Of a stretch of 64,000 nucleotides of DNA, positions 1,963 through 52,338 are shown piece after piece. Below the pieces are notes generated by a model, which was not told the origin of the DNA, made no database searches, and was given only the letters and a program-made list of their open reading frames with translations. Location of the stretch: the NCBI GenBank assembly GCA_051313645.2, contig JBNRSN020000010.1, forward strand, positions 9,424,001 to 9,488,000, in the 5' to 3' direction. The position numbers and the translations under genes are program-made. Every line of letters begins with the position of its first letter. Position 1 is the first letter of the stretch. The DNA comes from Centroscyllium fabricii (lineage: Eukaryota).

Positions 1963-2010
1963 TCATGAACTTGATTTAGGCAACACTGCATCAAGTAGTC
2001 TTCTTGCTGA
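1963..2010 (-). pseudogene. Orphaned distal part of the ancestral MS4A last exon (SARRLLDAVLPKSSS*)
   Basis: Homologous to the paralogue's C-terminus SAGRLFVAVECKSSS* ending at 52338. The following 3' UTR also aligns (gtgaagctaa...cctgaac). It is cut off from the exon start by a CR1 insertion. Confidence 0.75.
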
Positions 2011-3744
2011 ATCATAGAACCATAGAATGATATGACACAGGAATATGTCATCCGCCTATGTTGCCTGTACTCACTTTCTGAAAGAGAGATTCAATTACAT
2101 CCACCTGCTAATTCCCCACTGCCCTGCATTTAAAAAAATATTTTAATGTTATTTCGACTTCCCTTTTGAAAGTTACCATTGGATCTGCGTCATCCGCCCG
2201 TACAGGTAGTGCCTTCCAGATATCAGCAACTTGCTTCCTAAATACATGTATCCTCATCTCCCCACTTGCACTATTGCCAATTACATTAAATCTAACTCCT
2301 CTGATTATCAGCTCCTCTGCCAGTGGAATTAGCATTATCTAAATTATTCAATCAAAAGGCCTCCTAATTTTGAACACCTCTAATTAATCTCCCGTTCTCC
2401 TTCCCTGCTCTAACGAGAATAATAAAACAAAACTGAAACGCCTCAGCCCTGCTAACATTCTAGGCAATCTCCTCTGGATAGTCTCCAAGTTATTTATATC
2501 CTTCCTAAAGTGTGGTATCCACAATTGGACACAATGCTCCAGTGGAGGTCTAATACAGGATTTAAAAAGATTTAAGATAACTACCGTGTTTGATACTCTG
2601 TGTCTCTATTTACAATGCAAATTATTCCGTCTGTGTGTTAGCAGCGCTATCAACGTGTACTGCTAACATGAAGATATTGCGCCCTTGATCCCCCAGTCCT
2701 ATCAGTCCATGCTTCGACTTAAAGTGATTACTATTTAGTTGTAAAAAGATTCTACTCATTCTTCCTTCAAAAATACAACACTTCACACTTCTACACGTGA
2801 AATTGCAGCTGAAACGTGTCCCATTTTACCATGTCAATTTGTATCGTTGGAAACCAATCTATAACGGCTGTGGCATCAGACTTTTGGAGGTTGGATCTTG
2901 GGGATTATTGTTTCAGAGTGTTGACCTGATCAGTAGGCTCATGGGTAGGCTGCGAAAGTAAACGGAGTAAACAAATAAACAAAAGTTAAATATTTACACA
3001 GTCCAACTGACATAAATGTTGAAGATAACCTCCGTGTAAGGTGTGAAATTCCTCGCTAAAAGAAAATAGCAGAAATTACTGCCCATGTAATGTTTGAGGC
3101 TAATGGAAAACACTGTTTTTTATTTACAAGTCGGATAGCTGCTTCCAGCCAGCACAGATGCGCAACTCAAGGTGAAAATTAGAGTTAATGACCCAGATGC
3201 AGACAGATGAAAAATTTACGGCGAAAGAACCAATCTTTTCCGCGTCAAGCTACTCGAAAATGTCATGTCGCTGTTTGGCTCCTACTTCAAATGTAATCAG
3301 CTGCGTGGATTTCCTGCCCTTTCATCATAGAGATGGATTATTCACACCAGAGAAAACTAGGGACTGTCCATATCAGCCAAACTAGCATTTTTGAAACCGT
3401 GATCATTTTTAATTACTGAAAGTGCATTTCTAAGACAGATAATTCACTCTTACGAATGCCGAGTCTCAGTGCTTCAGATATTAATCGTTGATAAACATTA
3501 TTATTAAAATTAAAATTGAAACGAAAAAAATATTTTATTTCTGTCGCTATTCTATCTATCTCTGAATACAATGTTTCTTTCAATTAGCTTTCAATACTTC
3601 TTCTTCTTGTCGTATCTTTTTTCGAAGGGGTGGATGGAGTTTTTAACAGACCGGTTAACGGTCTGCCTTTTGACTGCGCATTAGCGCCTCCTCTGTGGTC
3701 ACTGCCTGCTATTGCACCTGGTCTTCCCCGATGGTCTCCCATCC

Positions 3745-3777
<33 letters not shown>

Positions 3778-6700
3778 CGAGGTCGACTTGGGATCGGGCG
3801 TTCTAGACTAGCAGGCCGGGGCTCAGCTTTCAATACTGATTTGATGTTTCGCACACTAGTCGAACACGCAGTTCCTGTATTAGAATCTGCGATGTTCTGA
3901 AATCAGTTCTTCCCTGTGGTTGGTGAACGGAATACATGGTTGATTGTTCTGTTCACACAGGTCCCAGATGGCCTGTAGAGGGCGCTGCATCATTTAGCTC
4001 TGTTCCTGCAACTTCAAGTAAAAAATGTCGTAGAATGTAAATGAAACTCCCCATCCTCAAACATGGCGGAGCCTCACACACGAGTGTAAAATACAAGGCT
4101 GAAGTGTGCAAACATCTTCAGCCAGATGTGCAAAGCGGATGATTCATATCGTCCACGATCATAGAAGACTGTCTTCAGTCAATTCAATTCACTCAACGTG
4201 ATATCAAAAAGGACACAGCCCACGGGTCACTGGTAAGGCTGTATGTCCCGAAATCACTCCTGCTGTGGTGTTGAAGCCTGGGACACCAGAATTGCCGCGC
4301 CTCTCACCAGGTAGTGCCAGTACAGCTACAACACTGGCATATATCCGACAATGAGGAAAATTACCCAGGTACTTGATGTATACAAAAAGCAGGACAGATC
4401 CAATCAGACATATTACAGCCGCATAAATCTGCTCACAATCATCAGCAAATTAATGGATGCAGTCTTAAACAGTGTAATCTATTGGCATTTTCATACCAAT
4501 AACCAGCTCACCAATATAAAATTTGCGCTGTGCCAGGACCACTCGCCTCCATACCACATTACAGCCTTTTTCCAAATATGGCCGAAATTACTGAATTCCG
4601 GCGGTGAGCTGAGATTGACTGCCCTTGACACCAATGCTGCAATTGAACGAGTGCGGCAACAAGGAGTGCAAATATAATTAAAATCAATGGCAATCAGGTG
4701 CGAAATCTCCACTTGCTGGATTCATATCTAACACAAAGGAAGATTGTTGTGGTTGTTTGAGGGCAAACATCCCTGCCTCTTGAAATCGATTCAGGAGAAC
4801 CTCATACAAGTGTCGTAGGTCCAACCATCCCCAGCGGGTTCATCAATCACCAATCCTCCTCATACAGTAAGCAGTGAGGAAGTTCGCTGACGATTGCACG
4901 GTGTTGATTTGGATTCACAGTTCTTCAGACACAGAATCAATTCGTGCCCGCATGCAACACGACCTGGCCGACATCCAGGCTTGTTCTGATAAGTGGCAAC
5001 GAATACTTTCGCTACACAATCACCAGTCAATGACTATCTGAAACAAGCGATAGTCTAACCATCGTCCCTTGATGCTCAACATCATTAATATCGCCGAATC
5101 CCCCACCATCAACATGCTGGGTGTCACAATTAGCAATAAACTTAAATGGACCAAACATTTAAATGGCGTGGACACATGTGGACTTCAGAGGCTGTGTATT
5201 CTGCGGCGACTGTCTCACCTCTGGACTCCTCAAATCATTTCCATTCACTACAAGACACAGCTAAGATGTTTGCTGGAATACCCCCCACTTTCCTGGATGG
5301 CTGCAGCTCCGAGAACACTCAAGAAGATCGACACCATTGAGGACAATGCAGCCCACCTGATTTGCACACAACCACCACATTAATCATTCACTCCCTCCAA
5401 GACCAGCGCTCCTTGGCTGACGAGCTTAACAACTATAAGATGCACTGCAGCAAATCGGCAAGGTTTATTCGGCAGCATCTACCAAGCCAGCGACCTGTAC
5501 CACATAGAAGGACAAGGGCAGCAGGCACATGGGAACGCCACCACCTTCACCTCCACATTTCCATCCAAGTCAAATAATATGCTGATTTGGCAGTATATTG
5601 CAGTTCCATCACCGTTCGCTGGGTGAGAATCCTGGAAAACACTCCCTAAATGCATGATGGAAGTACGCTCACCACACGGACTGCAGTAGTTCAATCAGAA
5701 GGCTCACCACCACCATGTCAAGGGCAACAAGGAATGGGCAATATATGCTGGCCTTGCCAGGGACGCCCACATGCCAGGAACAAATAAAAACAAGTCTAAC
5801 GCATTGCAGGCGCGTTTCCTCCACTGGATAAAGTTAATGCTGGCGTAATGCTTCTAATTGGAAAACTTTTGGGAGGTAAATGCAAAACTCGGTATTTTTA
5901 GAGTCAATATGCAGCGGAGCCAGAAATATTGATTTGCAATTTGGTATTGTAAGTACAAACCTGATTGACTTGTATTTTGGAATGTTTCCACAACTTCTTG
6001 CCTTCGAAAATGGAACCGACAATTGTTGTCAACAGCGCCAAAATTGCCAGCAGATGGAGAACGAGTAGCGGAGTAGAACGGGAAATCTGTGGATCAGCAG
6101 CAAGAACATGTTCAGGGCAATCAGAAATAAGTCCACGTGAGGCTGCAAGAACATTCACATATAGAGCGACATCACATTTTAGGGCAATCTCAGATGGAAG
6201 GTTACACTAAGTCAATTTTTGGTCAATGAAGGATATTGGCAATGGATTTGAACTCTGCCAGAAAGTGCTGAACGGGCATCGGACGTTCGTTTTGCGCTTC
6301 TCCCGATTTTCCTCTCCAATTGTATTCAATGGAAACGAAAATCGGGTGGAGCGTAACGCAGACTAATGTCATCCCCATTGTATCAATGTTAGGCGATCTA
6401 CCACAGGGCATAAAGAATACGTCTTCAACTGAAAGCACATTTCTGTGTGGAGGAGGGAATTAATGGTCCAGTGGGTGGAAGTATTATTCAGCCCCCGTTT
6501 CCAGGTCTAAGCTGTCCCTATAGAAAACAAAACTGATCGCAATGTTGGAAGTATAGAACAACATCTTAAAGAAACTTCTCTGCACTGCAGGCTGAGCTGG
6601 GAGCAGCCCAAAAACACAGGAGCTACAGCGCCGCCACAGGCCGACTGATGAAATTATAGCATAACGTCCGCTCGTTACAAACGTGACAGTATCATCTGAA

Positions 6701-9700
6701 ACGCTGTATCCGGTTGGGTACTTAGAAAGTACGGACAGGGCAGTGATTGCTTTTATCTCCGCAGTACCAATTCATAGAATCATAGAACGAAACATCAGAG
6801 AAGGAGGCCATTCTCACTACCGTGCCTGTGCTTGCACCTTGAAGGAAATATCCAATTAGACACACTGCCTCTCTTTTCGTAGCTCCACAATTGTTTCCCT
6901 TTCAAGTATTTATCCAATTCCCTTATGAAAGTAATTAACGAATCAGTTTACACCGCAAGTTCGGCCAATACATTCCAGAACGTAAGAGGTCGCTGTGTAA
7001 AACACGAATTATCCTCATCCAACCGCTGTTCTTTTTTTTGCAAATCACCTTCAATCTGTGTCCAAAGATGTGCGGGTTAGGTGGATTGGCAATGATAAAT
7101 TGACCCTTAGTGTTCGGGGGATTTAATATGTGGGGTTACGGGGATAAGTTGGGATATGTGTCGGTGCAGCCTCGATTGGGTTCGAGTGATATTGGGACAA
7201 GGCAGGGACAGGGTGCTGGGTTTGGATGATCAGCCACGATCTCATTGAATGGCGGAGCAGGCTCGAAGGGCCGAATGGCCAACTCCTGGTCCCACAAAAG
7301 TGCCGGTTCCGTTCATGAAATGCGCATGCACGGGAAACCGGCACTTCCTTTTCCCCAAACTTAGGGGTGAACAGGCGCAGCGCATGTTCTGGAGCGGCAG
7401 CGTATGCGATTTCAACTTAAGTTTTCTTTCCAGGTTTTTCTGTCCGGTTCAGTCTGAAAAGTTATGCTTGAAAAAAGCAGCAGTAAGGCCTGCATTTAAT
7501 GAGGTAAGTGCTGAATGAATTCAAATTAACACACTTTTTCCACAGATTTATTACTTTAACAACTTTAACGAAATGTAAGATTATTTTTAGAGCCGTTAGG
7601 AAATCTAATGAATTTTCTGAAAAAAGTAAAATATTGCCCCAGTGAATAGGCTCTGAACGCATGAGTATTGAGTACTCATGCGTATGCCATTCGAACGATC
7701 CGGATGCCTGCATGCCATGCGCCTGCGCGGGAAAGTGGCACTTCCATTCCCCGAAGTATGGGTTTACGAGGTGAAGCACGTGCGCGGGAGCAGCAGCGCG
7801 TGCGCATTGCCCTTATCCTTTTTTGGGCGTTTAATGTCTGGGTAAGTGAGAAAAAGTTAGACACAAAAAAAGGATCACTAAGGCCTGCTTTTAACAAGGA
7901 AAGTGCTGAATTAATCGAAATAAAAAAAATTCCCCAGGTTTATTAATTTAATTACTTTAAAGATAGGTAAGTTCATTTTTAGAACTGTTAGCAGAAATAA
8001 TTACATTTTCGAAATTTAAATTAGTGTTTAAAACAGCCATTTCATGATATTTATAGTCATTTTATAACTTTGCTGTTTTTAAAATTTATTTGAAGTTTTA
8101 TTGAAGTTTTGTGGCTTGTAGTATTCATAGTTTTTACAGAAATTCTGAGTGGCTCTGCAAGGCCCAAGTGGCACCAGGGGAGGCAAGTCATTAACTGCGG
8201 CATTCGGATATGCAAGCACAGCTGACCGGCAGTTGGAGGTGGCCCAGGAACAGAATTCCACGCTGACCCACAGCTCAACGGCTGGCACGCAAGTTAACTG
8301 TAGGTTGGAGTCTTACACACGCGGGAAAAATCCGACCTGAATATCTGGGCCAATATTGCATTTAGACGTCGTAAGATGAAAAGCCAAAGCTATCTTAGAA
8401 CGCCTCGCAGCAGTATTTCTCACTGCATCTCTCTAAAGTTGATCCGCTGAACAATGATGCTATTATGCCTGTGTATGCCTGGGACGCAAAGCTGTACTAT
8501 GTCCGGCAATATCAATTGTTTTTTTATGTCAGTATTCATTTGTGCAATCAGCCATAACACACCCAGAGGGAATGCTGATTTTAAACTATTAGTCATGTAT
8601 TAAGGGAGTTTTTCTAACTCTGCATTGTTCAGGCTTCAGCTGGAGTGCTTGGCACAGCACGTTTGACGGATTTCAAAGCACTAGAGTACAGATGAGATTG
8701 CAAGGAAAGTCACCTGGGATAAAAGTAGTCAGATACGTGTTTAGATTAGAGAAACTGGGGATGGTTTCGTTAGAGCAACGACATTAAGAGGAAATTTGAT
8801 AAACGTGTTCAAAATCATGAAGGTGTTTGATGGATAAATAAAGGACAAACTTGTTCCAGTGGCAGAGCAGTCGATAGCCAGCGGCACAGTTTTAAGTTAG
8901 TTGGAAAAATAACCACAGGCGTCGTGAGGAAAAACATTATGCAGCAAGTTGTTTTGATCTGGACTTCACTTATTGAAAGGGCCGTGGGGGCAGATTCAAT
9001 AATGATTTTCAAAGAAGATTTGCATAAATACGGCTCTGTATTAAAGCCAAAGTAATGGGTCAAGAGTGGCAGATAATTCAAAAAGTCAGATAATGAGTGG
9101 GGTCCTCACCTCGATGGAAATGCAATAAAGGACCAGATTGACTACGCCAAGAAGCGCACTGATCGCATACAGCGCCAGACACGTCACCACCTTCGGAGAA
9201 TAAGCAAACGACTATTAAAATATTTGAATTTGGTGAGATCCATATGAAGCAATTGATTTTCTGGGCGGAGATTCTCCTTCAATACTCACATCTAAAGACA
9301 TTAATGAGTTCCAAGTTCTTTACAAAATGGTTGTATTGCAATAAATATAGTAACATAGAATCTTACAGCAAACACGGCGGCCATTTCATTATGTCTGTGC
9401 TGGCTCTTTGAAAGAGGCGTGAAATAAGTGTATTTTATTTCAACCTGCAAATAAAATGTGACCATGTATGGTAGGATATGTAGTTTAGAATAAAATAAAA
9501 TGTATTTCAATTTAATTTGTGGAGGAACGCGCTTTTCTATATTGGATATCGCAGAGCAATCTCTGCCTTGTGTGTCGTGGGTGACTGTCTTGATCAGGGG
9601 AAGAATCACATGACCAAATATTGAAATAATTAAATACATGTCGGCTACACAGTCATTAGGAACACGGGTACATAGGAACAAGATAATTCCATTCAGCTCC

Positions 9701-12700
9701 TCCAAACGGACCTGGCACTCACTTAAATTATTGCTGATATTTAGCTTAACTCTTCTATCCGTCTTGCTTTCAAAGAGCTTTAATATCTTGCCTAGTAAAA
9801 GCGCAATGAGAACAAATGTCCGTAACAACTACAGGGCCTGGTTGATAAAACACTTTAGGTAGACATTGCAGCGAACTGGCGACTCGTTTTACCACTTATG
9901 CTGACCAAATATTACCCCCATGTGAGTGTAATACAGTCAGTATCGGTTAAGAAATCAATGAAACTGAATATGGGACCGGATGACAAATCAGTGACCAATG
10001 CACGACTGCTTGGTTTACCACCCTGCAATTCTCCAATTTCATCACCGAAACCACCCAATTATACGGGGTACCACTTATCAGAACAATTCCAGTTAAAGGT
10101 AACGTTTCCAGCACGTACATAATCCGCACAGCATCCACTATTTCAAATTAGAGCAATATCCTGGCAATGGACGGATTTGTTTAAATGGAGAGTCATTTTT
10201 GATATACTTACAAGACCTGTAGGTGATGTCTTTTCCATAATACAACAAAGGCTCCCAGAAATAAGAAACTGTGAAAGAAATGTGACATATCAGTTCCACA
10301 AATTAAAGCCTATGTATTGGAACAGCGATTCGCAACTAGGTCATTCAGCCCCTCGAAACTGTGCCGCCAGTTAATTAGATTATAGCTGATCTGTAACGTA
10401 ACTTCATTTACCTGCATTGGTTCCGTAATCCTTAATAACCTCAATGTGGAGGTGCCGGTGTTGGACTGGGGTGGACAAATGCAAAAAGTCACACAACACC
10501 TGGTTTATAGTCCAACGTTTTATTTTAAATCACAAGCTTTCGGAGCGCTGCTCCTTCCTCAGGTGACAGAAGAGACTGATTTAAAGATCACACATATCGG
10601 AGGAAGGGAGAAATCCGACCTCTTCCCCTAGAGCACACAAGCATATTAGCATACCTTAACACCTCAATCTGCGAACAATGGGGCACAATTGCAAGGGTGG
10701 TCACATGCTCAAAACACACAGAATGATTTTTTCCCCCTTATTAAAGCAAAAAAAAAACACATCAAAGGGGTGCAGTCACAGGGCCTAACGCTAGTCTGCT
10801 GTAAGTCCCACAGTATTACTTTTTTTATAAAAACCATGATTTTTCTTACTCAAAATTGCAGAGCAAGCCAAAGATGGTTCGGGTCTGGACGACTCCACGC
10901 CAGGCGGGGTCACATGTAGCGTGACATAAACCCAATATCACGGTTGAGGCCGTGCTCATGGGTGCGGAACTTGGCAATCAGCCTCTGCTCGACGATTTTG
11001 CGTTGTCGTGTATCTTGAAGGCCACCCTGGAGAATGCTCACCCGAAGATCGGAAGCTGAATGTCCTTGACCGCTGAAATGTTCCCCGACTGGGAGGGAAC
11101 ATTCCTGCCTGGCGATTGTTGCGCGGTGCCCGTTCATCCGTTGTTGTAGTGTCTGCATGGTCTCGCCGATGTACCATGCGCCGGGGCATCCTTTCCTGCA
11201 ACATATGAGGTAGACAACATTGGTCGAGTTACATGAGTATGTACCATGTACCTGGTGTGTTGTGTCCTCACGTGTGATGATTGTATCTGTGCTGATGATT
11301 TGGCACGATTTGCAGAGGTTGCTGTGGCAGGGTTGTGTGGTGTCGTGGTTGCTGTTCTCCTGAAGGCTGGGTAATTTGCTGCGAACTATAGTCTGTTTGA
11401 GGTTAGGTGGCTGTTTGAAGGCGAGTAGTGGAGGCGCGGGGATGGCCTTAGCGAGGTGTTCGTCATCATCAATGACATGCTGAAGGCTGCGAAGAACATG
11501 GCGTAGTTTCTCCGCTCCGGGGAAGTACTGGACGACAAAGGGTACTCTGTTGGTTGTGTCCCGTGTTTGTCTTCTGAGGAGATCTACGCGATTTTTCGTT
11601 CTGGCCCGTCGGAACTGTCGATCGATGAGTCGAGTGTCATACCCCGTTCTTACGAGGGCGTCTTTCAGTGTCTGTAGGTGTCTGTCGCGTTCCTCCTCAT
11701 CTGAGCAGATCCTGTGTATTCGCAGGGCTTGTCCATAGGGGATGGCTTCTTTAACGTGGTTCGGGTGGAAGCTGGAGTAGTGGAGCATCCTGAGGTTGTC
11801 CGTGGGTTTGCGGTAGAGGGAAGTGCTGAGGCATCCGTTTTTGATAGAGATTCGTGTGTCCAAGAATGAAACCGATTCTGAGGAGTAGTCCATGGTGAGT
11901 TTGATGGTGGGATGGAACTTGTTTATGTTATCGTGTAGTCTTTTCAGTGATTCTTCACCGTGGGTCCACAGGAGGAAAATGTCGTCGATGTATCTGGTGT
12001 ATAGCGTTGGTTGGAGGTACTGTGTAGCGAAGAAGTCTTGCTCGAACTTGTGCATGAAGATGTTGGCGTACTCAGGTGCGAATTTGGTCCCCATGGCTGT
12101 TCCGTGTGTTTGGGTAAAAAAATTATTGTCGAAGGTGAAAACATTGTGGTCAAGGATGAAGCGGATGAGTTGTAGGATGATGTCTGGAGATTGGCTGTTG
12201 TTGGTGTTGAGTACTGAAGCTGTCGCAGCGATGCCATCATCGTGGGGGATACTGGTGTAGAGTGCCGAGACGTCCATCGTGGCAAGGAGTGTTCCTGGTT
12301 CAACTGATCCGTGGGTGCTGAGTTTTTGTAAGAAGTCTGTAGTGTCGCGACAAAAGCTTGGGGTTCTCTGAACGATGGGTTTCAGGATGCCCTCGATGTA
12401 TCCAGAGAGGTTCTCACATAGGGTTCCACTGCCTGATACAATAGGGCGTCCCGGTGTGTTGGCTTTGTGTATTTTTGGGAGGCAGTAAAAATCTCCCATG
12501 CGGGGATTCCGTGGGATGAGGGTGTGTAGGGTGTTCTGAAAGCCTGGGTCGAAGGTCTTGATCAGTCTGTTGAGCTGGCGGGTGTGTTCCTTGGTCGGAT
12601 CTGCGGGTAGCTGTCTGTAGTGTTCTTGGTTGTCCAGTTGTCGGTATGCTTCTTTGCAATAGTCTGTTCTGTTCTGTATGACGATGGCTCCTCCTTTGTC

Positions 12701-24000: not shown

Positions 24001-24035
24001 ACACTGCGTGGTGTGACTGATATGATCGGTTAGCT

Positions 24036-24078
24036 GGGGCGGTGGGGGCGGGTGTGGGGACGGGGTGGGGGGAGGAGT
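24036..24078. promoter_or_regulatory. GC-box / G-tract cluster, candidate MS4A promoter
   Basis: ggggcggtgggggcgggtgtggggacggggtggggggagg contains two GGGCGG Sp/KLF motifs and six G-runs. Confidence 0.45.
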
Positions 24079-24464
24079 TGGGCCCTGTTCACTCACTAGC
24101 TTCTCAAAGCACCAGTCCAAACATTTTATCTTCTCTGCAGCTGTTTTCGTCAGTTCAGTTCCGTGAAGAACAGCTGGTATTTGAAGGAAAGAATGAAGGA
24201 ACGCTGACGTGTAATGTGAGTCTGAATATTACACTTGGTTATATCACTGTAGATACGCTTCTTTTGTCTGTACTGATAGTTATTTTATCGGAAGACTCAA
24301 CGTTTGAAGTGAAGGAATAGCCGCTAGCTTTGTACAGTACATTTTCAATAATCACTGATGAGACAATTATCTCAAAATAATTTCCGAACGATAATATGTT
24401 ATCTTGTACATTGTCTTACGAAACCAATTACCATATTAACATATTAATCCGCTCAATTATTTGT

Positions 24465-33700: not shown

Positions 33701-34790
33701 GCAAGTTGGTTTAACCCCTTCTCACGACATACTAGCAAAACTCCCCAGAAAGATGTTGGTTCCATCCCGTTTCAGGTGCAATCCAGCCGATATGTCCAGA
33801 TTCGACCTTCCCCAGTTCAGACCCAGACATCGTGGGCGGCACGGTGGCATAGTGGTTAGCATTGTTGCCTCACAGCACTGGAGACCCGGGTTCAAATCCA
33901 GCCTCGGGTACTAACTGTGTGGAGTTTGCACATTCTCCCCGTGTCTGCGTGGGTTTCCTCCGGGTGCTCCGGTTTCCTCCCACAGTCCAAAGATATGTGG
34001 GTTAGGTTGATTGGCCATGATAAATTGACCCTTAGTGTTAGGGGGATTGAATATGTGGGGTTACGGGGATAGGGTGGGATATGTGTTGATGCAGGCTCGA
34101 TAGCGATATGGGGAGAGGGCAGTGGCGGGTTACTGGGTTTGGATGATCAGCCATGATCTCATTGAATGGCGGAGCAGGCTCGAAGTGCCGAATGGCCTAC
34201 CCCTGCTCCTAGTTTCTATGTTTCCATGTTTCTATCCAGGAAATTAATAACCTCCTTCCTGCAACAACTCCTTAGCCATTCATTCATCTGCTCTTCCTGT
34301 TATTACTATACTCACTAGCACGTAGCACAGGGAGTAATCCAGAGATGACAAACTTTGTGGGCCAACTTTTCAATCTGTTCCCCAGCTCCCTAAATATTGT
34401 TGCTGGAAAGCATCGCTCTTTCTACCCATGTCGTTGCTAACAATGTGAAACCCGACAGCTGACTGTTTGCCCACCCGCTTCAGAATGCCGTGCAGCCATT
34501 CAGTGATATTATGACCCTGGCACCAGGGAGCCAACATACCATCCTGCAATCACGTCTGAGGCCAAAGAAACATCTATCTGTTCCTCTTACGATAGTGCCC
34601 CTATCAATGTACTCTCACAGTCCCTTTCCTCCACTCCTGTGGAGCTGAGCCACTCGTAGTATTACAGATTAAGCTCCTGCAGTTTTCCCCTTAGAAACCG
34701 TCTCCCGCATCAGCTCCAAGACGGAAAATAATTTGGTGGTAGTGAAGGACTCAGGGGACTCCTGCACTACGTATCTGCTTCTTTTACTTT
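30715..34790 (-). mobile_element. Near-full-length degraded CR1 LINE (ORF1 esterase, ORF2 APE and RT)
   Basis: PTREGAVLDLIL (APE), DKFPGPCEMYPRLL, WKTANVVPLFKK and FWSPQYRRDVVALE. ORF1 MVCWLPGARV remnant at about 34510-34545. Confidence 0.88.
33834..34235 (+). mobile_element. Full-length HE1/V-SINE-like SINE inserted in CR1
   Basis: A box tggcatagtgg, B box ggttcaaatcc, V-domain and CR1-type tail. Highly similar to 13095-13513. Confidence 0.9.
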
Positions 34791-35712: not shown

Positions 35713-38687
35713 CTATTTAACTAGGATGCTTCAAAATGGGTATTAGACTGGAGGCACTAAATTGCACATATTCTATCCACAAGTTTTTCCATCGCCTGAG
35801 GGTACCGAAACTGGACACCGGTTTCTGACAGAGGCCTGAGCAAGGTCTTGTAGCAGAATATGATGATTGGCTTCTTTTTTGTAGTTAATTGTCCGATAAA
35901 TACGCCCATGAAAAATCAGATATTTTGGATCAGAGCAGATGTAGCAGCGCAGATATGACGGCAGCTGATGGATGCTCAGCTTCAATTAATAGTAGATTGA
36001 ATGCGGGAGGTTTGATCTGGGTTTGAATTTTGCCACATTAATCCATTTTTCTTGCTTTATCTATTTGGAGATAGCAAGAACAATCTTGAAATGTTCATCC
36101 AACACGTAATGAACGGGTTTGTTAAACACCTACCAGGACTGCCATTACCGTCAGGAAAATAGAATGGACAAATGGGGAATAGATTGCAGATGGTGTTTAA
36201 TATGGATTAGAGTGATTTAATAGAATTTGTCAGGAATGATCGCATATCTTTAATGGAACGTTGCCGATTGATGTCACTGAAAAGAGACACCAACTTTTCA
36301 AGTACTTAATTCCTTCAACGTACCCATGGAGGTAGAAAAAATCATGAAAAATACCAACTGCATTTTCGAGGTAGGGAAATTGGAATAGGGTGACACCGTC
36401 AACCACTGGAGCGTTTTCCACCATTCCATTAGATATTGGATGATCAGTATCTGATTTTCATCCAGCCTTCCTGGTTCTGTAACACTTAACACCGTTGTTA
36501 AAAAATCTGTTAATCTCAGATTTTCATTTCTAATTGACCCCAAGTGTCATCAGCGGTTTGGGGGAGTGTTGTCCAGACATCCGCCACCCCATTGTGTGAA
36601 GAAATGCTTCCTAGCAACAATCCTAACATGCCCATCTCTAACTTTAAGGCTCTGCCCATCCACTTATGGACTACATAATCAGTTGTTTTTATTACTATCG
36701 ACACTACCAAATACATTAAGTACCTTAAGAATCTCAATTGCATGAACCTTCTTCACCTTCTATATTCAAAGGTTTAGATTCCGAGCGTTAGCACCTTAGC
36801 ACATTTGAATGCTGACGCCAAGTTTTCCGATGATGACTTCAAGGGGCAATTACGAATGAAAACGGGGAGAGCGTGAGGGTTACGTCTTTGGGGCAACTTC
36901 AAATGTGACAATGCGGGTACAGGGAGAGCAACCATTGCTGGATAAACTGCGGCTGTATTTGGAAACATAAGAATTGAGTCAAGCGGGTGCAGTCCAATCG
37001 TGCTGCAATTTCAAACTCCACCAAAATGTGCAGGTGCTGAAATAATTGACTGTGGTTAGGTTGCTATTGAGAATATTCAAAGTCTGCAAAAATGCACAGC
37101 CCTGACCCAGATAATGTCATGCGGACGTGCCGTCTTAGAAAACATTGTTGATTACCACCTAAACCGAGACGGGGTATTCAATCGTCAGAGGCATGGTGTG
37201 GATGTGAGAACAGGAAACAAGATCATGAACATTTACTCTCTCATGCAGTCATACACATATTTGATAGTCAACGTTATTTCCACAACTAAATATATCATAT
37301 TAATTTAAGGAAACTAAATAAATCTATTATGGTCTCAGTATCAAAGTGCTGAACACTTTACTTCTATCTTGGGTGCACTCTGCCAGAGGGCGGTCGATGA
37401 TTTGCATATGATAACCTTTGTGAAGAGAGAAGTTGTTTACTCTGTAGAATTGTTGAACAGCGGTCAACGCTTCGGCTCATTCCACTAAAGTAACCATGGG
37501 AAGCCAACCATAAGGGGACGAAAAGGGGATGGAAATGTCCCTGGGCGGGAAAGGAAAACAGGTGGTGTCGCATGTATCGCCTGAATTATGTTGCGCCCGG
37601 AATTCAGTCCCACTGACTTCTCCCATCACAAAGGTTAAATTACGAAGATCGACGACCTCTATCTGCGCCGAGTACACTCTCGGTAGAGTTACGGGGTCAG
37701 CACTCTGATGCTGACACCAAATTAGTTTTAGTTAGATTGCACAACAAACCGACAATTTTGCTTGTCACGTAGCAGTTCGAAAATTGGATTCCGCCGGTTT
37801 TATTCAGCTCACTTGTCCTATTTCACCCCGAAGTGTCTCTCCTCTGGTAGAACAAAATTGTAGTGTCCAGACTCACATTACAGGTCAGTATTCCCCCGAT
37901 ATTATTTTCAAGTACCTATTGTTGTCCCCTGAATACAATTTTTTAGAACAGTTCAGAAATTATAAAGTGATTTGACTCAAGTTGCGAGATACTAGGGACC
38001 CAACTAAAGTCAATAAATTACAACATCAAAGCAGGCCAGTCGGTCCAATGATTCCGACTCACAATAATGGTGAACAGGATCCAACCCGGGAAGGAACAAT
38101 TCACTATCGCTAATTTTGGTTACCTCAAGTTTCTGGCCATAAAGTCTCTCGGGCTCTTAAATAGGCCGCAGAGCGCGGATCGGCGATCGATAATCACCGG
38201 TATGTTAAAATTAATTATATTGACCCTCCGAGACCATTTAGCGAAGAGACATGGCTTTTACTGGGAACAAGAGGGGACATTTTACATCTGAGTGATTGCG
38301 TTTAATGGGCGATATGGAATTAAGCGCCAAATACAAGTCCTGCGCGATTTCGCATCTAATTAATTCCATTCAAGGGAACAGCTGACGGGTTGGTATCAAA
38401 CTCAATACGACATCGTCGGTTTTGCACTTTCAAGCAAAATTTATACATATATCGAAATTTGATAAGTTTATCTGCATTAATACTGCAGCATCTTCTCGGA
38501 TTGTTTGCATAACTTCAGTCTGAAATTTTCGTGAATCTCATTTCGTAAATGTGCAATAGCCACCGTACACTGATAGGAATATTTCCTAATAACATGTATA
38601 TATATAAATTCAAAGCTGTGGCTGAACAGTTGTCAGCCGGCTCTGCATTGAATAAAAGTACAAGCTTTTAACACGGTCCTTTTTCTC

Positions 38688-38890
38688 AAATAAAAACAGA
38701 AAATGCTGGAAATACTGAGCAGGTGAGGCAGCATCTGTGTAGAAAGAAACAGAGTTAACGTTTCAGGTAGATGACCGTTCGTCTGAGGTTAATGCTGTTT
38801 CTATCTCTACAGCTGCTGCATGACCTGCTGAGTATTTCCAGCGCTTACTGATTTTATTCAGATTTCCAGCATCCCGAGTATTTTGCTTTT
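38688..38890. repeat. Inverted-repeat element derived from Penelope-type terminal repeats, with a degenerate hammerhead core
   Basis: The left arm aaatgctggaaatactgagcaggt...gcagcatctgtgtagaaagaaacag pairs with the right arm ctgtttctatctctacagctgctgc...acctgctgagtatttccagc. The minus strand reads cagacgaa...gaaacgtt. Confidence 0.6.
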
Positions 38891-39951
38891 TTCCCTTTTT
38901 CTGAAAGTGTATTTTTGGTAATTTGCCCGTTTTGAGGTTAAACGCCAGCCGTGAGTCGTTACGCTGCCTGGCCTGCTTTATTATGCTGTAAGTCCTATAC
39001 ATTTCTATCTCTATATCTGTTGTTGGATGACTGCTGCTTGTAATGTCAGCAGTAAATTAAAATGTATAGTTGAGGTAATGTTCCCTTTATAAAGTAGAAG
39101 ATAATGAAGCTCATTGCACCGAAATCTGTGTCGCTCCGGCAAACGGAAAGAACTTAGCTCGTCAGTTTATTTGTAATAACTGATGATTCAAATTGAACTT
39201 AACGCAACCTGGAATTAAACAATTGTCGTAACTTTAAACGTTCCACCGAATATGAAACTATTTTTTACATTGATGTAATTATGTTAATTTTAATTTAATT
39301 GGACAGTGTAACCTCATATATTAATATTATTATGTTTTCTGAAATAGTATTTTATTATAATGATACACAACAGGATGTAAGTTAAGTGGAAAGATTTCCA
39401 TTTGTCTGTATAGGATGATTAACCAAAATATGTCCGAGAAACAATATAATGGTTGATAATTTTAGTGACAACCAATTTAAAAGCAGCACTCTTGCTAATT
39501 CAGGACCTGTACCAGGCAGAAAAAAGCATGAACGCAGCAACAATATGTTGACCGATTGGAGCACAAATCATTCCATCGACTAAATTTAAATTCTTGAGAA
39601 GAGTGTCTTTTTTCCTCAAATTATCTTTTTCGGGCTTTGTGAAATGAAAAACTAAAATCCACATCACCTGGTTCCTGTAAATAAGCACTTCTCAAGATTG
39701 AAAGAAAATAATGTCATGAACATGACGTTAACATATCACCATGAGAACTTCAATCGGAATTTATTGAATTAGAAATATATATTTACAGATTGGGTGCAAG
39801 TTTTATTCATATGTCACAAGTTGGCATTGTCAGACTATAATATCATAAAGTATATTGTTCAGTTAATATTATGTGAAGTTTTTCTATGTTAATATGTGTG
39901 GCATTTCCTTCTTATGTACAACGTATTTATTGACACGTCTTTAATTGGGAC

Positions 39952-40115
39952 ATGGAGACGTCACTGAACACTGAATGGGACATCAGGAGTCCCGCTATTA
40001 TCCAGCAATCCTCTAGAAGGGAAAGGTCAGTGAGACGGCAAGGCTGCCGGACTTATTGATCCACCAGAAGAGTACTGGTCCAGAAATTAAGATGGTAAAA
40101 CAAAAAGCATTGTTT
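39952..40115 (+). pseudogene. MS4A pseudogene first coding exon
   Basis: METSLN...TY* (TGA at 40057), then shifted to GPEIKMVKQKALF|gtaagataaaagcat, versus NPGIQMGKPKVLG|gtaagatgaaagcat in the other copy. 164 nt versus 165 nt. Confidence 0.82.
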
Positions 40116-40319
40116 GTAAGATAAAAGCATTACTATTATTCTTTTTTCGCTTCTCAAGTAAATCACAATTTCAGTTGGCAATGGTTGACTTTCAAGGCGC
40201 CTTGAATAAAATTGCTTCTGGTCACTAGGGTTATGAACATCATTAATTATCTGCTACAGATTAATTCCAATCTATATTTCCACCGGATAAGATGAAACTT
40301 ATGAGAAGTAAGACAAGCA

Positions 40320-42985: not shown

Positions 42986-43151
42986 TTATCTATTGATCTC
43001 AATCATTTCTCATGGAAGTTTTATTTGCCTTGATCCATGATCTGTCGCTTTCTTTGCCAGCCCCTCTCCCTCTCTAGCACACGCACACTGACATGCTGGT
43101 CGATTTTACGTTGTTTACCTTTTCTTTGCACGCGATATTGTTCTCTTTTAG

Positions 43152-43255
43152 GTTTCTATAATTGTGTTGGTAATATGTTTTACAATATTCTGGACGCCAT
43201 GTGTCCAATATCCGTAGCATAAGAACACAGAACACACTGGTGGAGCGGTCAATCA
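43152..43255 (+). pseudogene. MS4A pseudogene TM1 exon
   Basis: tttag|VSIIVLVICFTIFW...(TAG, frameshift)...RTHWWSGQS|gtgagt. 104 nt versus 111 nt. Confidence 0.8.
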
Positions 43256-43687
43256 GTGAGTTTCCATCCAATGTCCCTGGGGAAACACGTTTGGAGGAAT
43301 TTCACTATGCTTTGAATTGAATAGATGGGACGGTTTTGTTACTTTGCCTCTTTTTGCACAGAACGCTTGTCATAATACTCCACTGATCGTCGTTATATCA
43401 TCGGAGAGGAAAAATATTTTTTTAAACAATTAATGTTTCCGTTAAAATAGCGAACAGATGGAATGACAGGCAAACCAGATTCCGACGCCTAAGTCAGAAA
43501 TTATACATTCTACAAGTCGGTGTATTTAAATTCGTTGGTTGTACAGATGCATTTTATTGGTTTTTTTATTCGAGGTTTGATATTCGGGAGCCTGCCTGTT
43601 TCACTTTTCAAATTGCTGATCATTACCTCAACTATATTTACCTTCATTGAAACTTTATATTCATTAATACAGTTAACCAAACATAAT

Positions 43688-44583
43688 GGGCCCTGTCTTC
43701 CTGTGCTCCAGAAGAGCTGCACCCCCACGAAGGGGGATCAGAAATGCCTCGTGTGGGTGCAGCTCGGGTGATTACCAGAAACGTGAACATCCTGTGCTGA
43801 TGGGCAAGGGGCTTCAGCTTCCTGCCCAGGTAGACTTTGAGCTGCAGACTTCCTGTGGCAGCTGCTCAATATACGGGTGTATCACGTGGGGAAGTCTCTC
43901 TTTTGCTGCACAGATAAAAAGGAGGCTTAAGAGGCTGCAAAAAGCTTTGAGAATTGAAAAAAACACGTTTAAAGTAAAAAAAAATCTTATTCATTTGGAG
44001 ATATTTGTCTGTGGTCTTACAGCTTGTAAATGTGAAGGTTTATATATATTTTGGTGAAAGTTAAAAAAAATCGGGAATTTGAACGCGATGTCAGCCGCTC
44101 TGATGCTTTCACAGCGGCCGACATCGCGTCCAAATCCCCGATTTTTTTCACTATCACCAAAATATATAAAAACCTTCACATTTACAAGCTGTAAGACCAC
44201 AGACAAATATCTCCAAAGGAATAAAAAAAATAAGTTTAAACGTGTTTTGTTCACTTTTTAGCAAAAAATAACCCCTATCAGCAGAAAAGGCAGAAACTTT
44301 AAAAAACCAGCTTCCTAGAAACTGTAAAAAAAACAAACATAAGGTGCTTCCTACCTGATATTCTTCATCCCGTGGCCGATTCTGCATTTCGTTCGGGGGT
44401 AAAGCCGACCGCAGTGGGCGTGGCTTGCACCCCGACCAAAAAAAAGAGGTCCCCTCCGAACGAAAAGAAAACGGGATTTCCCACAGGAAGTTCAGCTGAG
44501 AATAAAAAAAATCACGTGCGCGTGCGCCGCGGGTGCACGTCAGCACGCACCCGCAGCAATCGGGCCACAGGAAGACAGGGCCC
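43688..44583. mobile_element. PIF/Harbinger-type MITE (copy 2, opposite orientation to copy 1)
   Basis: TIRs gggccctgtcttcctgtg / cacaggaagacagggccc. TSD AAT at 43685-43687 and 44584-44586. Confidence 0.9.
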
Positions 44584-44589
44584 AATGTA

Positions 44590-46350: not shown

Positions 46351-46446
46351 CTTTCAATCAGATAGACATGTTTCAGAGTGTCAGAGCGTTGTTATCATTA
46401 CTGAGAGGCTTTATCATGAAAATTTGATATGACTCATTTTTTGCAC

Positions 46447-46503
46447 TTCATTGTTTGTGGGTGTACCTGATGTGTTCTGGAAAAGACAACATCCATGATA
46501 CTT
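46447..46503 (+). pseudogene. MS4A pseudogene TM2 exon
   Basis: FIVCGCT*CVLEKTTSMIL versus FLISGSLCCIMEKTSPTGL (37/57 nt identical by hand count). The acceptor is mutated to cac. Confidence 0.82.
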
Positions 46504-46578
46504 GTAAATATCTCCAGAATGGCTTTACACTACATCAAAGCTCTCCATTGCAAGGAATAATGTTTCATCTTGAAACAC

Positions 46579-46698
46579 TTGTCACTGGACTGATGATGTG
46601 CATTTTAGCAAAGTAACCATCAACTGGAATTGTTCACACAACTACTAGCTCATATAATGAAGGTGGATCTTGACACTTTGCGATAGTGTGAAATAGTG
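46579..46698 (+). pseudogene. MS4A pseudogene TM3 exon
   Basis: Aligns with 10137-10019 (VTGLMMCILAK*PSTGIV versus DAVRIMYVLETLPLTGIV). The acceptor reads cac. Confidence 0.65.
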
Positions 46699-49188
46699 GT
46701 TTTCAGTCAGTAGCCCGTCATACATCTACCGCTATTTATATTTCAGTAACTGCAATGGAATGGAAAATGGAACGGGGTTGATAAATGGGCGTTTAAATCG
46801 GCATCACTTGTTCTATACGATTGACGAAATTTAAAATTCGACTCAGTGAGGCTATATCTTGACTTTTTACGAATCTACAGCACATTTTATATTTCATCAT
46901 TTTATCCTTTCTAGAAGAATACAACTCAAAAGCAGGTAGTTTATATTAAACTGATTAAAAGAACATTGATTATACCGCAATTAGAGTATTGTGCACTGCT
47001 CTGAGCTTTGTATTGCAAAAGTGTTACAGTTACACTACAGAAAGTAACACTTAATAACAATTTACAAGAATTATGGCAGAAAACATGGTTACAGAATCAG
47101 AAAAGACCGAGAAGGGTGGAGATAATTTCTCTGGAAGGGAGAACAAGAGATGTAGTGAAATTATGAAGGGGTCCATTGTGGTAGGCATAGAGAACATGAT
47201 TCCACTCGTGGGTGGGGGCAAGGGGAGGATGTACACACAAACTAAGCTCTTTATATTAGACGGTCACTACTAAATCCAACAGCGAAATATTGATTTGCTG
47301 CTTATACTCAAAAAGTGGAGATAAACAATTGCATTCATGCAGCGCCTTCTATAATCTCAGGACGTCAATAAACGCTTCACAGCCCAACAACTACATTTGA
47401 AGAGTCGTCATTATTGTACTGTTACGTTTTGCCCCATGGAGTGCATGAGGTGAATATCATAGAATCATTGAAGCATCGAATGATACATAAAAGAAGAGGG
47501 TCATTCTGTCCAGTGTGCCTGTGGCTGCTCTTTAGTTGTATTTTCCGATTAATCCCGATTCCCAGCGGTAACCCCATAGCTATTGAAGCATTTATACAAT
47601 TTTACAACTGATGCTGTTAACAGGAAGTGTTATAAGTTCATGAACGAGAAAGGAAAAAAAGATGTGTGTGATGAATTACGTTGGTAGTGGCCTCTGTGGA
47701 GCAGAAGTATCGACAAGGGCCAGTTGTCCCGAATGGATTGTTGCTGTGGAGTAAAATTATACGTAATTATAAGTAATATTTGTCTTCAGAGGGCTTCAAT
47801 GGAAATACATATGGGGATAAATGAAAACATATTTCCGACTCGCTACCACTGTTTTACACTACTGCAAATGTCAAGATCAGTCCATCAGTCCAATCAGCAG
47901 AAACTGTATTTCCAAACATTTGTTCTAACTGCGTCCTAGATTGCTGTAACGGTTATGTGGAAAATATTCTTCTATGTAATTATAAATTTAGCTGCAGATT
48001 TCATTGATCAATATAGTTTTCTAGAATTGAAACTACATCTTTACTCCCTAGAAAATCCTTTCCCCCAAAAAATAGAATTAAATAATCATATACACAGGAA
48101 GAGGCCATTCTGACCATTGCACCTGTGCTGGCTCTTTCAGAGACCTTTCCAATTAGTGCAAATACAACTGTTCCTTCCACAATTAGCCGTACATTTGTCT
48201 TCCTTTTTAAGTATATATAGAATGTCCTTTTGAAATTTACTGTTGATTCTGTTTCTATCATCCTTTCAGTCAGCGCACTTCAAATTGTAACCAATTGTTC
48301 TAATATGTGCTCTCTGGTTAACACCCTTATGCCAGTGAAATATGCACCACAACCTCTCCTTGTGATAGTGAGTTCCAAATTATCACAAATGCCTTTTTAA
48401 ATTGTTCCAGCTGAATTATTTGATGAATTTCTTCTTTACAAAGTTATATTGATCGTCCATGCTTTTGGGCACCACTGCACGTGGAAGCAGCTCTACGTTT
48501 AACCTACCTTAAATGTAAAGACCTCTATTAGGCCACAACTCTACCTTCTCTATTCTAGATAATGGAAATCCACCTTATCAATCTGTAACACATTTTCCTA
48601 CACAATTGCCAAACGCATCTAGCTTGAATTGCCTGAAAAGCCGGTGGAAGCAGAATTAAAAGTAACATTCAAAGTGATATTGTATATATACTTGGAAAAA
48701 TAATAATTGCAGGTTTACGGGGAAAGAGCAAAGCGGAGTGGGCGAAATTACACAACCTCTTCAAAGAGCCGACACAGGCAAGAGATCCGGAACGGTCACA
48801 TTCTGTGCTGTATGGTTCTATGATTCATATCCGTGTCCAATATTTTTACCCCAGCGTCGAAAGTTCCTTCATCTGAATAATTATTGTTGAGTCCCTGTGG
48901 CTGGTCGCACATTATTGGAACAAGGGGGTGATAAATGTGTTTGCAGCAAAGCGACTGATGTTCTGTTCCATTGAACTCAATTGGAAAGGAAATGGGAATG
49001 AGTGTAAAATGGACGTCCGATGGCGAAAACCAATTTCACTCCCAATTGTCTTCATTTGCCCCAAATTGTCAATTACAAATTCTAAATCTCCAGTTGATTT
49101 TCTCCTTCGATTGTGCAGTCGCTGGGAGTAGCACCATTCTCCTTGCAAGTTCCGATTGTCTCAACATATTCTTGCAAATGATCCACAG

Positions 49189-49313
49189 AGATAACGTCAT
49201 GTTCTGGTACTCGTTCTCTTGCTACTGGCGCTGTGGATTTATTGATATACATCCTTTTTTCCATTGTCGGATGCAAGATGTTGTGGAACAATTATAAAAT
49301 ACAACTCAATAAG
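49189..49313 (+). pseudogene. MS4A pseudogene TM4 exon
   Basis: gatccacag|R*RHVLVLVLLLLA (frameshift) LLIYILFSIVGCKMLWNNYKIQLNK. The donor is mutated to ga. 125 nt versus 126 nt. Confidence 0.82.
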
Positions 49314-49579
49314 GATGTTAGATTTAAGGTCACATTGCTAATTAATATTACAGGTTGAGATGCTTAGAAATCAAGACGTTGTCTGTGAAATTCTTCACGG
49401 GCGGGGCGCAAATGGGCGGCCGATCCGATCCGCTGGTTTGGGTCACCGTCCGAGACGAATTTCTCGGTTCTTGCATTTATGTAGTGCAGAGCTTGGCCCA
49501 GGGACGTCCCGAAGTGCTTAACATCCAATTAAATAGGTTTAAATTTTAGTTGAGGTTGTAATGCTGGAAAGTCCGTAGT

Positions 49580-50444: not shown

Positions 50445-52100
50445 GAAACATAAAAACATATAAGAGATGTGCAGGAGTATGCCATGCAGCCCCGTAAGTC
50501 TGTTGCGCCATTTAATGAGACCATGGCTGATCATCGAATTTCAGAAACCTGTCCCTCCTTTGACATCATATTCCTTGATCATTTTAGCCTTAAGAAACAT
50601 ATATAACTCCCAATTGAATATATTTAATGAATTGGCCTCAACTATCTTCTGTGGTAGACAATTCCACAGATTCACCACTCTCTGGGCGAATGAATTCCTC
50701 CTCATCGTTGTCCTAAATGGCTTATACCTTATATTTTGACGGTGACCCCTGGTGCTGAACACCCCTGCAATTTGGAATATCAGTCCTGCATCTAGTCTGA
50801 CGAATCCCTATAGAATTTTATAACTTTCAATGAATTTCACTCTCATTCTTCTAAACTCTCAGTGAATATAAGCTAATGGACACAATCGGTCTTCATAAGT
50901 CATTCCTGATATCCCAGGTCTCAGTCTGGTGAATTTTCGCTGCACTCCCTCCATGGCAGAAACATCCTTCCTCGGATAAGTCGACCACAACTGCACACAA
51001 TACTCAAGGTGTGGTCTCAACAAGGCTCTGTGCAGTGGCAGCAGGTCAACAATGCAATTTTACTAGAATCCTCTCGTTATGAGGGCCAAAAACAAATTTG
51101 AGTTCTTCACCGACTGCTGCACCTGAATGCTTACCTTCAGCAACTGGTGCAACAGAACACCCAGGTCCCGTTGCTCCTTCCCATTATGCTAATATGTTGC
51201 CGTTCAGATAATAATATATAATCCTGCTTTTGACACCAAGAGTATAACATCGCTTTCATCCACTTAATACTGCATCTGCCATGCTTCTGCCCGATCACCC
51301 AACCTCTCCATATCATACTGGAACGTCTCTTAATCCCCCTGACTGCACACATGCACACCGAGCTGTGTTTCGTCTGCAAACATGCATATATTACTTATAG
51401 TTCCCTCGTGTAGATCATCAATATAAATTGTGACTATCTGGGCTCCTCGTAATGATCGCTGAGGTACCCAACTGGTCACTGCCTGCCAGTCGAAAATGAC
51501 ACTTATATTCCAACAATTTCCATCCAGTCTGGCACCCAGTTCTCTATCCAAGTCATTACCTTACCCGCATTACCAGGTGGTTTAACTTTGCACGCCAATC
51601 TCTTATGCGGGAGCTTTTTGAAATACTTTCGAAATTCCCAATACACCATATCCATTGGTTCTCCCTTATCTATTCTATCAGTTACATCCTCAAAAAATTA
51701 CAGTAGGTTAGTCAAACGTAATTAACCTTTTGTAAAACTATGTTGACTTTGTACGAGCCTGCCACCGTTTTCCAATTGTACTGCTATTACTACTTTTAAA
51801 TTGATTGTCGCATTTTCCCCACTACCAATGTCAGGCTTACTGGTCTATAATTCCACTTTTTCTCTTTCCACCATTTTTAAATAGTGGTGTTACATTAGCC
51901 CCCCTACAATCTATGGGAACTATTCCAGAGTCTATAGAATTTTGGAAGACAACCAGCATTTTAACTATTATTTCCAGAAGCAGTTCCTTATGCACCATAT
52001 GATATAGATTATCAGGCTCAGGGAATTTATCGGCAACAAATGACGTCAATTTCCCTATCACCATCTTACTACAAATACTGATTTCATTGAATTGCTCCAA
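50445..52100 (-). mobile_element. CR1 LINE RT and 3' end
   Basis: ANVTPLFKNG, VTSWVPQRS, MFADET and RNSFAQRVVNLWN. Confidence 0.85.
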
Positions 52101-52182
52101 CTCATGTCAGTTTGTTTTTCGTCTAATTGTATTATTTCTTTTTTATCTACTATTTAGACAACAATTCCCATTTATTTTTCAG

Positions 52183-52338
52183 TTTCCAGATAAGCCTCCT
52201 GATCAGGCCAACACCTCCGATGCCACAAGTTCCGACCTACAGCAGTCAGATGCCTCCAAAACAGGGGTAGTGTACAATAGAGTGGGATATTCTGCCGGAA
52301 GACTATTTGTTGCCGTGGAATGTAAATCCAGTTCATGA
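52183..52338 (+). pseudogene. MS4A pseudogene last exon, still open (FPDKPPDQANT...VECKSSS*)
   Basis: Acceptor ttatttttcag, 51 codons plus a stop. Homologous to the minus-strand segments 2949-2860 and 2010-1963. Confidence 0.8.

Follow-up and report, generated by a model that had tools for sequence, protein, structure and literature searches.

Does the pair of divergent exon sets found on a single contig of Centroscyllium fabricii represent two MS4A (CD20-like) genes, one, or none? The exons lie in a 64,000 bp stretch of contig JBNRSN020000010.1 (assembly GCA_051313645.2, positions 9,424,001 to 9,488,000 of the forward strand), here called the window and numbered from its first base. Copy A is on the minus strand and copy B on the plus strand, each pointing outward. 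A sequence-only reading of the window had described them as a head-to-head pair of MS4A paralogues. The explanation we favor, and hold to be probable, is one divergent, probably functional MS4A gene (copy A) beside a long-dead inverted twin (copy B). The MS4A identity, the old inverted duplication and the strong divergence put forward in that reading are all retained. The count of two genes is not, since B is disabled in exons 1, 2, 3, and 5.

An Old Inverted Duplication

The window consists of vertebrate-type DNA, free of N, with a GC content of about 42%. Its repeats are abundant decayed CR1 long interspersed nuclear elements (LINEs) and short interspersed nuclear elements (SINEs), one Penelope-like frame, and one decayed long terminal repeat (LTR) element. 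Alignment of the reverse complement of positions 1-31,000 against 31,001-64,000 revealed inverted homology as a collinear chain, running from about 24.3/37.8 kb outward to 1.9/52.4 kb (Table 1). An extra pair near 30157-29547/37007-37484 may be part of this chain. The exons lie within it. Identity between the copies is 106/164 in exon 1, 69/104 in exon 2, 37/57 in exon 3, and 85/125 in exon 5 (65-68%), and none of these alignment scores was reached in 1000 shuffles per exon, which bears out the inverted exon homology first reported. Seven collinear non-coding blocks, chosen for being alignable, are identical at 1584 of 2372 positions (66.8%), a Jukes-Cantor (JC) distance of about 0.44.

A frameshift-tolerant scan with exons 1, 2, 3, and 5 gave about 2,400 peaks in the window, and the B homologue ranked top after the exon itself each time. 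The scan found no third gene copy in the window. Likewise, a Pfam search of all 134 open frames of at least 82 aa gave no third gene, with retroelement domains alone standing out. The MS4A cluster that had been proposed is therefore not seen here. What the window holds is an old inverted duplication of a whole MS4A gene plus its upstream region.

The start codons are at 22071 (minus) in copy A and 39952 (plus) in copy B, and the 17.9 kb between them agrees with the earlier estimate of about 18 kb. The non-duplicated spacer between the arms is at least 6.8 kb. A bidirectional gene pair consists of two expressed genes that start within about 1 kb of each other and share a promoter. The geometry is indeed head-to-head, but this implies no shared promoter, because each copy has a duplicated upstream block of its own and 17.9 kb separates the ATGs. 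With B disabled as well, we rejected a bidirectional pair. The intronic transposons that we examined sit at non-matching positions in A and B, and so were inserted after the duplication.

Imperfect inverted repeats or hairpins are found at 37311-37738, 38689-38858, and 6292-6356, the first of which adjoins the inner edge of B's duplicated arm. A CR1 3′ end lies upstream of the exon 5 block in both copies, at 6979-6777 (minus) and 48618-48826 (plus). The distances to the block differ, and the two ends are either shared from before the duplication or independent.

Table 1. Coordinates of copy A, copy B and the duplicated arms in the window.
Feature	Position	Strand	Length and basis
A upstream region, duplicated in B	22072..24261	minus	65-67% identity, three blocks
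A exon 1: ATG, 55-aa cytoplasmic N-terminus ending KPKVLG, phase 0	21907..22071	minus	165 nt, open, GT donor; 64.6% identical to B exon 1
A exon 2 (37 aa, phase 0): helix 1 plus the first extracellular loop	14678..14788	minus	111 nt, AG/GT, open
A exon 3 (19 aa, phase 0): end of helix 2 plus the intracellular loop	10212..10268	minus	57 nt, AG/GT, open
Degenerate tandem repeat of A exon 3, no in-frame acceptor	10085..10141	minus	27/57 vs A exon 3, 37/57 vs B counterpart
A exon 4 (27 aa, phase 0): helix 3	9110..9190	minus	81 nt; splice scores; dogfish MS4Ax1 match
Collinear block, probably the "119-nt exon" of the sequence-only reading, most likely intron	6441-6165 / 48860-49123	minus in A	phase-0 stops
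A exon 5 (42 aa, phase 0): helix 4 plus the juxtamembrane tail	5961..6086	minus	126 nt, AG/GT, open; 68% identical to B exon 5
A last coding exon: 14 codons, then premature TAA at 2907-2905	2905..2949	minus	strong acceptor; aligns with start of B last exon
Decayed CR1 LINE 3′ fragment within A last exon, now 3′ untranslated region	~2016..2865	minus	tblastn
Remainder of A ancestral last exon: old stop 1965-1963, AATAAA at 1895	1890..2015	minus	aligns with B 52284-52400
B upstream region, inverted counterpart of A's	37830..39951	plus	alignment to A
B exon 1: one base deleted; codon 36 is TGA	39952..40115	plus	164 nt
B exon 2: 7-nt deletion, stop	43152..43255	plus	104 nt
B exon 3: no acceptor AG (now CAC); codon 8 is TGA	46447..46503	plus	57 nt
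Degenerate tandem repeat of exon 3 in B	46575..46631	plus	30/57 vs A exon 3
B exon 4: faint possible remnant, uncertain	47300..47400	plus	mixed alignment results
B exon 5: codon 2 is TAA, one base deleted, donor GT to GA; retains GCK	49189..49313	plus	125 nt
B last exon: open over 51 codons to the ancestral stop; AATAAA at 52391	52183..52338	plus	alignment to A
Chain block	24261-23598 / 37830-38530	inverted arms	arm alignment
Chain block	23076-21753 / 38913-40268	inverted arms	arm alignment
Chain block	14809-14471 / 43132-43456	inverted arms	arm alignment
Chain block	10311-10058 / 46406-46658	inverted arms	arm alignment
Chain block	6441-6277 / 48860-49022	inverted arms	arm alignment
Chain block	6126-5908 / 49150-49366	inverted arms	arm alignment
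Chain block	2966-2918 / 52166-52214	inverted arms	arm alignment
Chain block	2012-1955 / 52289-52346	inverted arms	arm alignment

Copy B Is a Long-Dead Pseudogene

The last exon is the only one of copy B that is open. Three of its exon lengths (164, 104, and 125 nt) are not multiples of three, unlike their counterparts in A, and thus record three frameshifts. The pairs 165/164, 111/104, 57/57, and 126/125 had been measured correctly in the sequence-only reading, but the small differences, taken there as a close match, are these frameshifts. The three indels in 459 nt compare with about 4.6 expected under neutrality since the duplication (P(<=3) = 0.33). Global alignment of the possible exon 4 remnant was reached by 11/500 and 0/200 shuffles, and its local alignment is within the null range. 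Assembly error was rejected as the source of the lesions, their kinds being too many.

Two functional divergent paralogues, head to head, might be argued from what B retains: an ATG, several splice sites, the GCK motif, the open last exon, and a poly(A) signal. Against these stand three frameshifts, stops in four exons, a lost acceptor, a lost donor, and an exon 4 that is nearly erased, and we regard a functional pair as close to impossible. Copy B is a long-dead pseudogene.

Gene Model of Copy A

The spliced six-exon product of copy A is open and 194 aa long, with exons 1-5 contributing 540 nt, and all five introns are in phase 0 with GT/AG ends. MS4A genes probably have a phase-0 layout in which successive exons encode the N-terminus, helix 1-2a, a short helix 2b segment, helix 3, helix 4, and the tail. 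Kyte-Doolittle peaks over 19 residues are 2.7, ~1.2, 2.2, and 2.4, so that three helices are clear and the second is weak.

Exon 4 was sought among all 244 open phase-0 AG..GT candidates of at least 21 nt between exons 3 and 5. Only the candidate at 9190-9110, which is strongly hydrophobic, has splice sites at the level of the accepted exons (at least 10/15 pyrimidines and a donor of at least 7/9). The sequence-only reading missed it and instead placed here, without coordinates, a 119/120-nt exon pair that probably corresponds to the block at 6441-6165, the one collinear block left in this interval. This is a conserved block in which every phase-0 reading from the acceptor at its start meets a stop, and no 119- or 120-nt AG..GT pair exists on the minus strand within 6150-6600. 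When 119/120-nt AG..GT/GC stretches were compared across the two introns (32 x 22), the five top-scoring pairs were elsewhere, the best two in a CR1 3′ end. The block is most likely intron and not a coding exon.

Within this block, the stretch 6404-6325 (minus; ~48897-48975, plus, in B) resembles exon 4 at 40/80 nt, with matching ends and a frameshift. It is possibly a decayed second helix-3 exon. A score of 40/80 is reached at 3 of 18,264 sampled positions, the protein-level rank is 62/2403, and about 0.5 such matches are expected over a 3 kb intron, for which reason we do not claim it as a decayed exon 4 duplicate. Degenerate repeats of exon 3 lie about 128 nt downstream of it in both A and B, in the same 3′ register followed by GT, and without an in-frame acceptor. 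For the repeat in B, 30 identities are reached at 4 of 127,886 positions, among them exon 3 of A itself and that of B. The presence of the repeat in both copies suggests that the exon 3 duplication predates that of the gene.

The 3′ end of copy A is altered. The premature stop removes about 37 residues from the tail. Some 40 nt beyond that stop begins the inserted CR1 fragment, about 850 bp long, with three stops in its aligned part (tblastn against the window's other CR1 frames, lowest E 2.5e-21). The alignment of the ancestral last exon with B 52284-52400 covers both the stop and the poly(A) signal. The end point of 1963 given for the gene in the sequence-only reading is thus an old stop codon past the CR1 insertion, and the last exon of A stops at 2907-2905. 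A stop in the last exon should escape nonsense-mediated decay. The tails of A have no tyrosine, hence neither an ITAM (immunoreceptor tyrosine-based activation motif) nor an ITIM (its inhibitory counterpart).

A 5S rRNA-like sequence is located in the last intron of A at 3703-3816 (minus; 58.7 bits, gathering score 38), and is either a pseudogene or the leading part of a SINE derived from 5S rRNA. In intron 2, on the same strand as A, is an uninterrupted 682-aa reverse-transcriptase frame (12958-10913, minus; Pfam RVT_1, E 1e-9). It is a young Penelope-like element, the C-terminus of which we take to resemble a GIY-YIG nuclease.

Probable Membership in the MS4A Family

Five MS4A motifs (VLGAIQIL, FIISGSLS, GYPFWG, SLxxN, and SxxxAxxG) were scored from the portion of PMC11663944 that was available. 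VLGAIQIL is matched by A at 7/8 positions across the exon 1/2 junction, a score reached in 1/50,000 shuffles; the unspliced six frames hold no match of 6 or more. FIISGSLS is matched at 6/8 at the start of exon 3 (118/50,000 shuffles), the sole such match in six frames. No shuffle of 50,000 gave the two jointly. Of the motifs cited in the sequence-only reading, KPKVLG, xIQI, and FxISGSL are present in A only, and SxxGCK in B only. The last falls at the family motif F[GA]C[KQ] after helix 4, common in the alignment of Fig. S1 of PMC2826416 as far as that figure was available; the residues are VGCK in B and FEGK in A.

The closest comparison is with MS4Ax1 of the spiny dogfish (SA_MS4Ax1), for which we used the same part of that alignment. 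By eye, 28/90 residues are identical without gaps over the final 7 residues of exon 1 and all of exons 2, 3, and 4 (5/7, 6/37, 7/19, and 10/27 in turn). The exon 4 match to the dogfish third helix is in register, with a binomial P of ~3e-8 at an assumed background of 10%. In helix 4 about 8/20 are identical, the dogfish row being assigned by order. Unlike A, MS4Ax1 has a second loop of about 20 residues with two cysteines, an Asn in the third helix, a cysteine after helix 4, and a longer tail. Its third helix reads CLxxN, itself off the SLxxN pattern, and it likewise departs from GYPFWG, near the expected place of which A has Trp-x-Gly. The identity of ~31% suggests that A may be a distant paralogue.

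More broadly, A resembles vertebrate MS4A proteins (CD20/MS4A1, FcRbeta/MS4A2, MS4A4, MS4A15, zebrafish MS4A17) in its lineage-specific duplication, in motifs of the VLGAIQIL and FIISGSLS types, and in having four predicted helices within about 200 aa. It differs from them in the unmatched GYPFWG, SLxxN, and SxxxAxxG, and in having no ITAM or ITIM. Lineage-specific duplication and rapid change are described for the family in the available parts of two sources, as the zebrafish MS4A17 expansion (PMC2826416) and as ascidian clades (bioRxiv 10.1101/2022.08.15.492342).

Several results weigh against the account of A as a functional MS4A gene, in addition to the choice of alignable non-coding blocks above. 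GYPFWG is not found in A, where the best match is 3/6 and in the wrong place; a pattern search of A found neither SLxxN nor SxxxAxxG, and GCK is replaced by FEGK. The second helix is weakly hydrophobic (sampled window means peak at ~1.2 vs 2.2-2.7 elsewhere), and the last exon carries a premature stop and a LINE. Pfam CD20 matched no single exon of A or B at E up to 10 (9 exon-sized pieces searched with 3 element frames), these pieces of 21-55 aa having little power; three readings of exon 4 and two frames read across introns also gave no CD20 match. Homologue searches with exon 2, exon 1, and a five-piece exon alignment returned 6, 8, and 1075 candidates, none at E <=10, and a search of Atlas with exons 2 and 5 gave no usable match, with low recognition. 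Four pieces found nothing relevant in PDB. In a search of representative sequences, exon 2 had one match, to a repeat-laden G protein-coupled receptor model that we rejected as spurious, and none to MS4A. The queries in these homologue, representative, Atlas, and PDB searches were hydrophobic exon pieces of 27-55 aa and not the spliced protein, so their power is low and they do not show absence.

The lack of any profile or database match for an exon would also be expected if A belonged to some other four-pass group, whether TMEM176-like or unrelated, and its motifs were convergent; PMC2826416, in its available part, cautions that unrelated proteins can resemble MS4A over short stretches at the helix level. 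Two motifs in the correct order, one of them assembled across a 7-kb intron, speak against this, as do the ungapped 90-residue dogfish match with equal segment lengths (37, 19, and 27) and the GCK at the family position in B. We consider another group very improbable. From motifs and alignment, A very likely belongs to the MS4A family.

The second extracellular loop deserves separate mention. In the six-exon model of A it has about 8-10 residues and no cysteine pair, a pair found in most MS4A members, with named exceptions, according to the available part of PMC11663944. A functional A may have an extra small second-loop exon, such as a cysteine-bearing micro-exon of 21-27 nt near 6428-6402, which would bring the protein closer to an ordinary MS4A than the 194-aa model does and would be compatible with the favored explanation. 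Exon 4 ends immediately after the helix, a plausible acceptor lies at 6428 within the conserved block, and dogfish and most fish MS4As in the part of the alignment seen have a loop of ~20-25 residues with two cysteines. However, the candidates all have weak donors (5-6/9) or weak acceptors, below the accepted exons, and the donor of the 6428-6402 candidate is 5/9. The loop is also minimal in the MS4A15 rows and nearly absent from several mouse MS4A4 rows of that alignment. Such an exon is thus doubtful.

Probable Selection on Copy A

Exons 1-5 of A contain no stop and no frameshift, and all splice dinucleotides are intact. In simulated neutral decay A stayed intact in 0/5000 runs over half of the A-B divergence, in 0.3% over 25%, in 8% over 10%, and in 27% over 5%. 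These simulations are simple, with no CpG effect and the present sequence of A as the start, which counts against the argument built on them. Since neutral decay rarely leaves the frame intact, A appears to have been selected for most of its history. The CR1 fragment in its last exon acquired three stops and exons 1-5 none.

The amino acids behave differently from the frame. A-B mismatches at codon positions 1, 2, and 3 are 50/151, 56/150, and 47/149 (33/37/32%), indistinguishable from non-coding DNA. With B neutral, a pattern this flat arose in at most 1.2% of 1000 simulations at omega <=0.3, in 3-4% at 0.5, and in 18-20% at 1.0. Together with the intact frame, this suggests that the amino acids of A changed nearly freely while the frame was kept, by relaxed constraint or by diversifying selection.

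That both copies are pseudogenes, with A recently dead or drifting functionless and exons 1-5 not yet frameshifted, is a reading that we judge unlikely. The flat codon-position divergence, for which omega near 1 fits best, is what it would predict, and A has lost family residues (the third-helix Asn, the Cys after helix 4, and the loop cysteines). In the last exon, the CR1 insertion and the premature stop point in the same direction, as does the lack of a database match for exons 1 and 2, and a death within the last 5-10% of the divergence would leave the frame intact as often as 8-27% of the time. Yet decay long enough to account for the amino-acid change would almost surely break the frame, as in the runs over half of the divergence, and the stops gained by the CR1 fragment are not shared by exons 1-5.

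The flat pattern also has an adaptive interpretation, tentative and somewhat unlikely, in which A is an expressed, adaptively diverged MS4A of cartilaginous fish that has shed nearly all of its second loop and the conserved cysteines, carries a LINE in its 3′ untranslated region, and has changed at about the neutral rate throughout, helices included. In ascidian MS4A, selection acts on extracellular sites and the helices are mostly purified (bioRxiv 10.1101/2022.08.15.492342, available part), whereas in A change spans all four compared exons. This comparison uses two sequences only, one of them dead, and the difference from selection confined to extracellular sites leaves room for plain relaxation.

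Proposed History and Role

The favored explanation, of one probably functional gene and a dead twin, would run as follows. Long ago (JC ~0.44) a segment with an entire MS4A gene and its upstream region was probably duplicated in inverted orientation. Copy B would have died early and decayed about neutrally, and copy A would have been held by selection for an open, spliceable frame. The predicted product is a four-pass MS4A-type protein of 194 aa, with a 55-aa N-terminus, four helices in phase-0 exons, and a shortened tail, which we presume to be expressed. By analogy with other members both ends would lie inside the cell, and the protein may act in the plasma membrane as one subunit of an oligomer, serving as a scaffold for, or a modulator of, receptor and calcium signalling in a non-blood tissue. 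The MS4A genes of the dogfish show expression outside blood cells (PMC2826416, available part), and a chemosensory role has been demonstrated in rodents alone according to the part of PMC7776563 seen. For A, no immune role and no olfactory role can be taken for granted.

Other Elements in the Window

The main SINE copies are at 13098-13494 and 33840-34221, and presumably resemble HE1/V-SINEs of sharks and rays. The CR1 and SINE content makes plausible the chondrichthyan origin suggested in the sequence-only reading. A foldback element similar to miniature inverted-repeat transposable elements, with long internal inverted repeats, occurs at 14854-15952 and 43681-44588, with a fragment at 61526-61697. 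The two copies are 82-87% alike in their best blocks and are independent insertions, one in A's intron 1 and the other in B's intron 2, flanking exon 2 on opposite sides. Downstream of B is a decayed LTR retroelement (~60500-62950, plus) with a zinc knuckle, a protease-like DTG, and an RNase H-like domain in separate broken frames, and a 106-nt tandem repeat (59419-59649) lies just upstream of it. HE1 is described as a SINE family of sharks and rays in the available part of PMC4824008.

Significance for the MS4A Family

Among MS4A genes, losing one copy after a duplication is routine turnover, and no new mechanism is indicated here. If the adaptive interpretation is true, A would be a lineage-specific receptor under long-running diversifying selection, by pathogens or chemosensory cues, that homology searches have overlooked, and the dead copy B would be its built-in neutral reference. 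B serves as a local neutral yardstick. MS4A genes of cartilaginous fish are barely described: among the papers listed, PMC2826416 is the one devoted to the family, and it reports three dogfish genes from expressed sequence tags. With its exon model corrected, this divergent member helps to fill in the MS4A family near the root of the jawed vertebrates.

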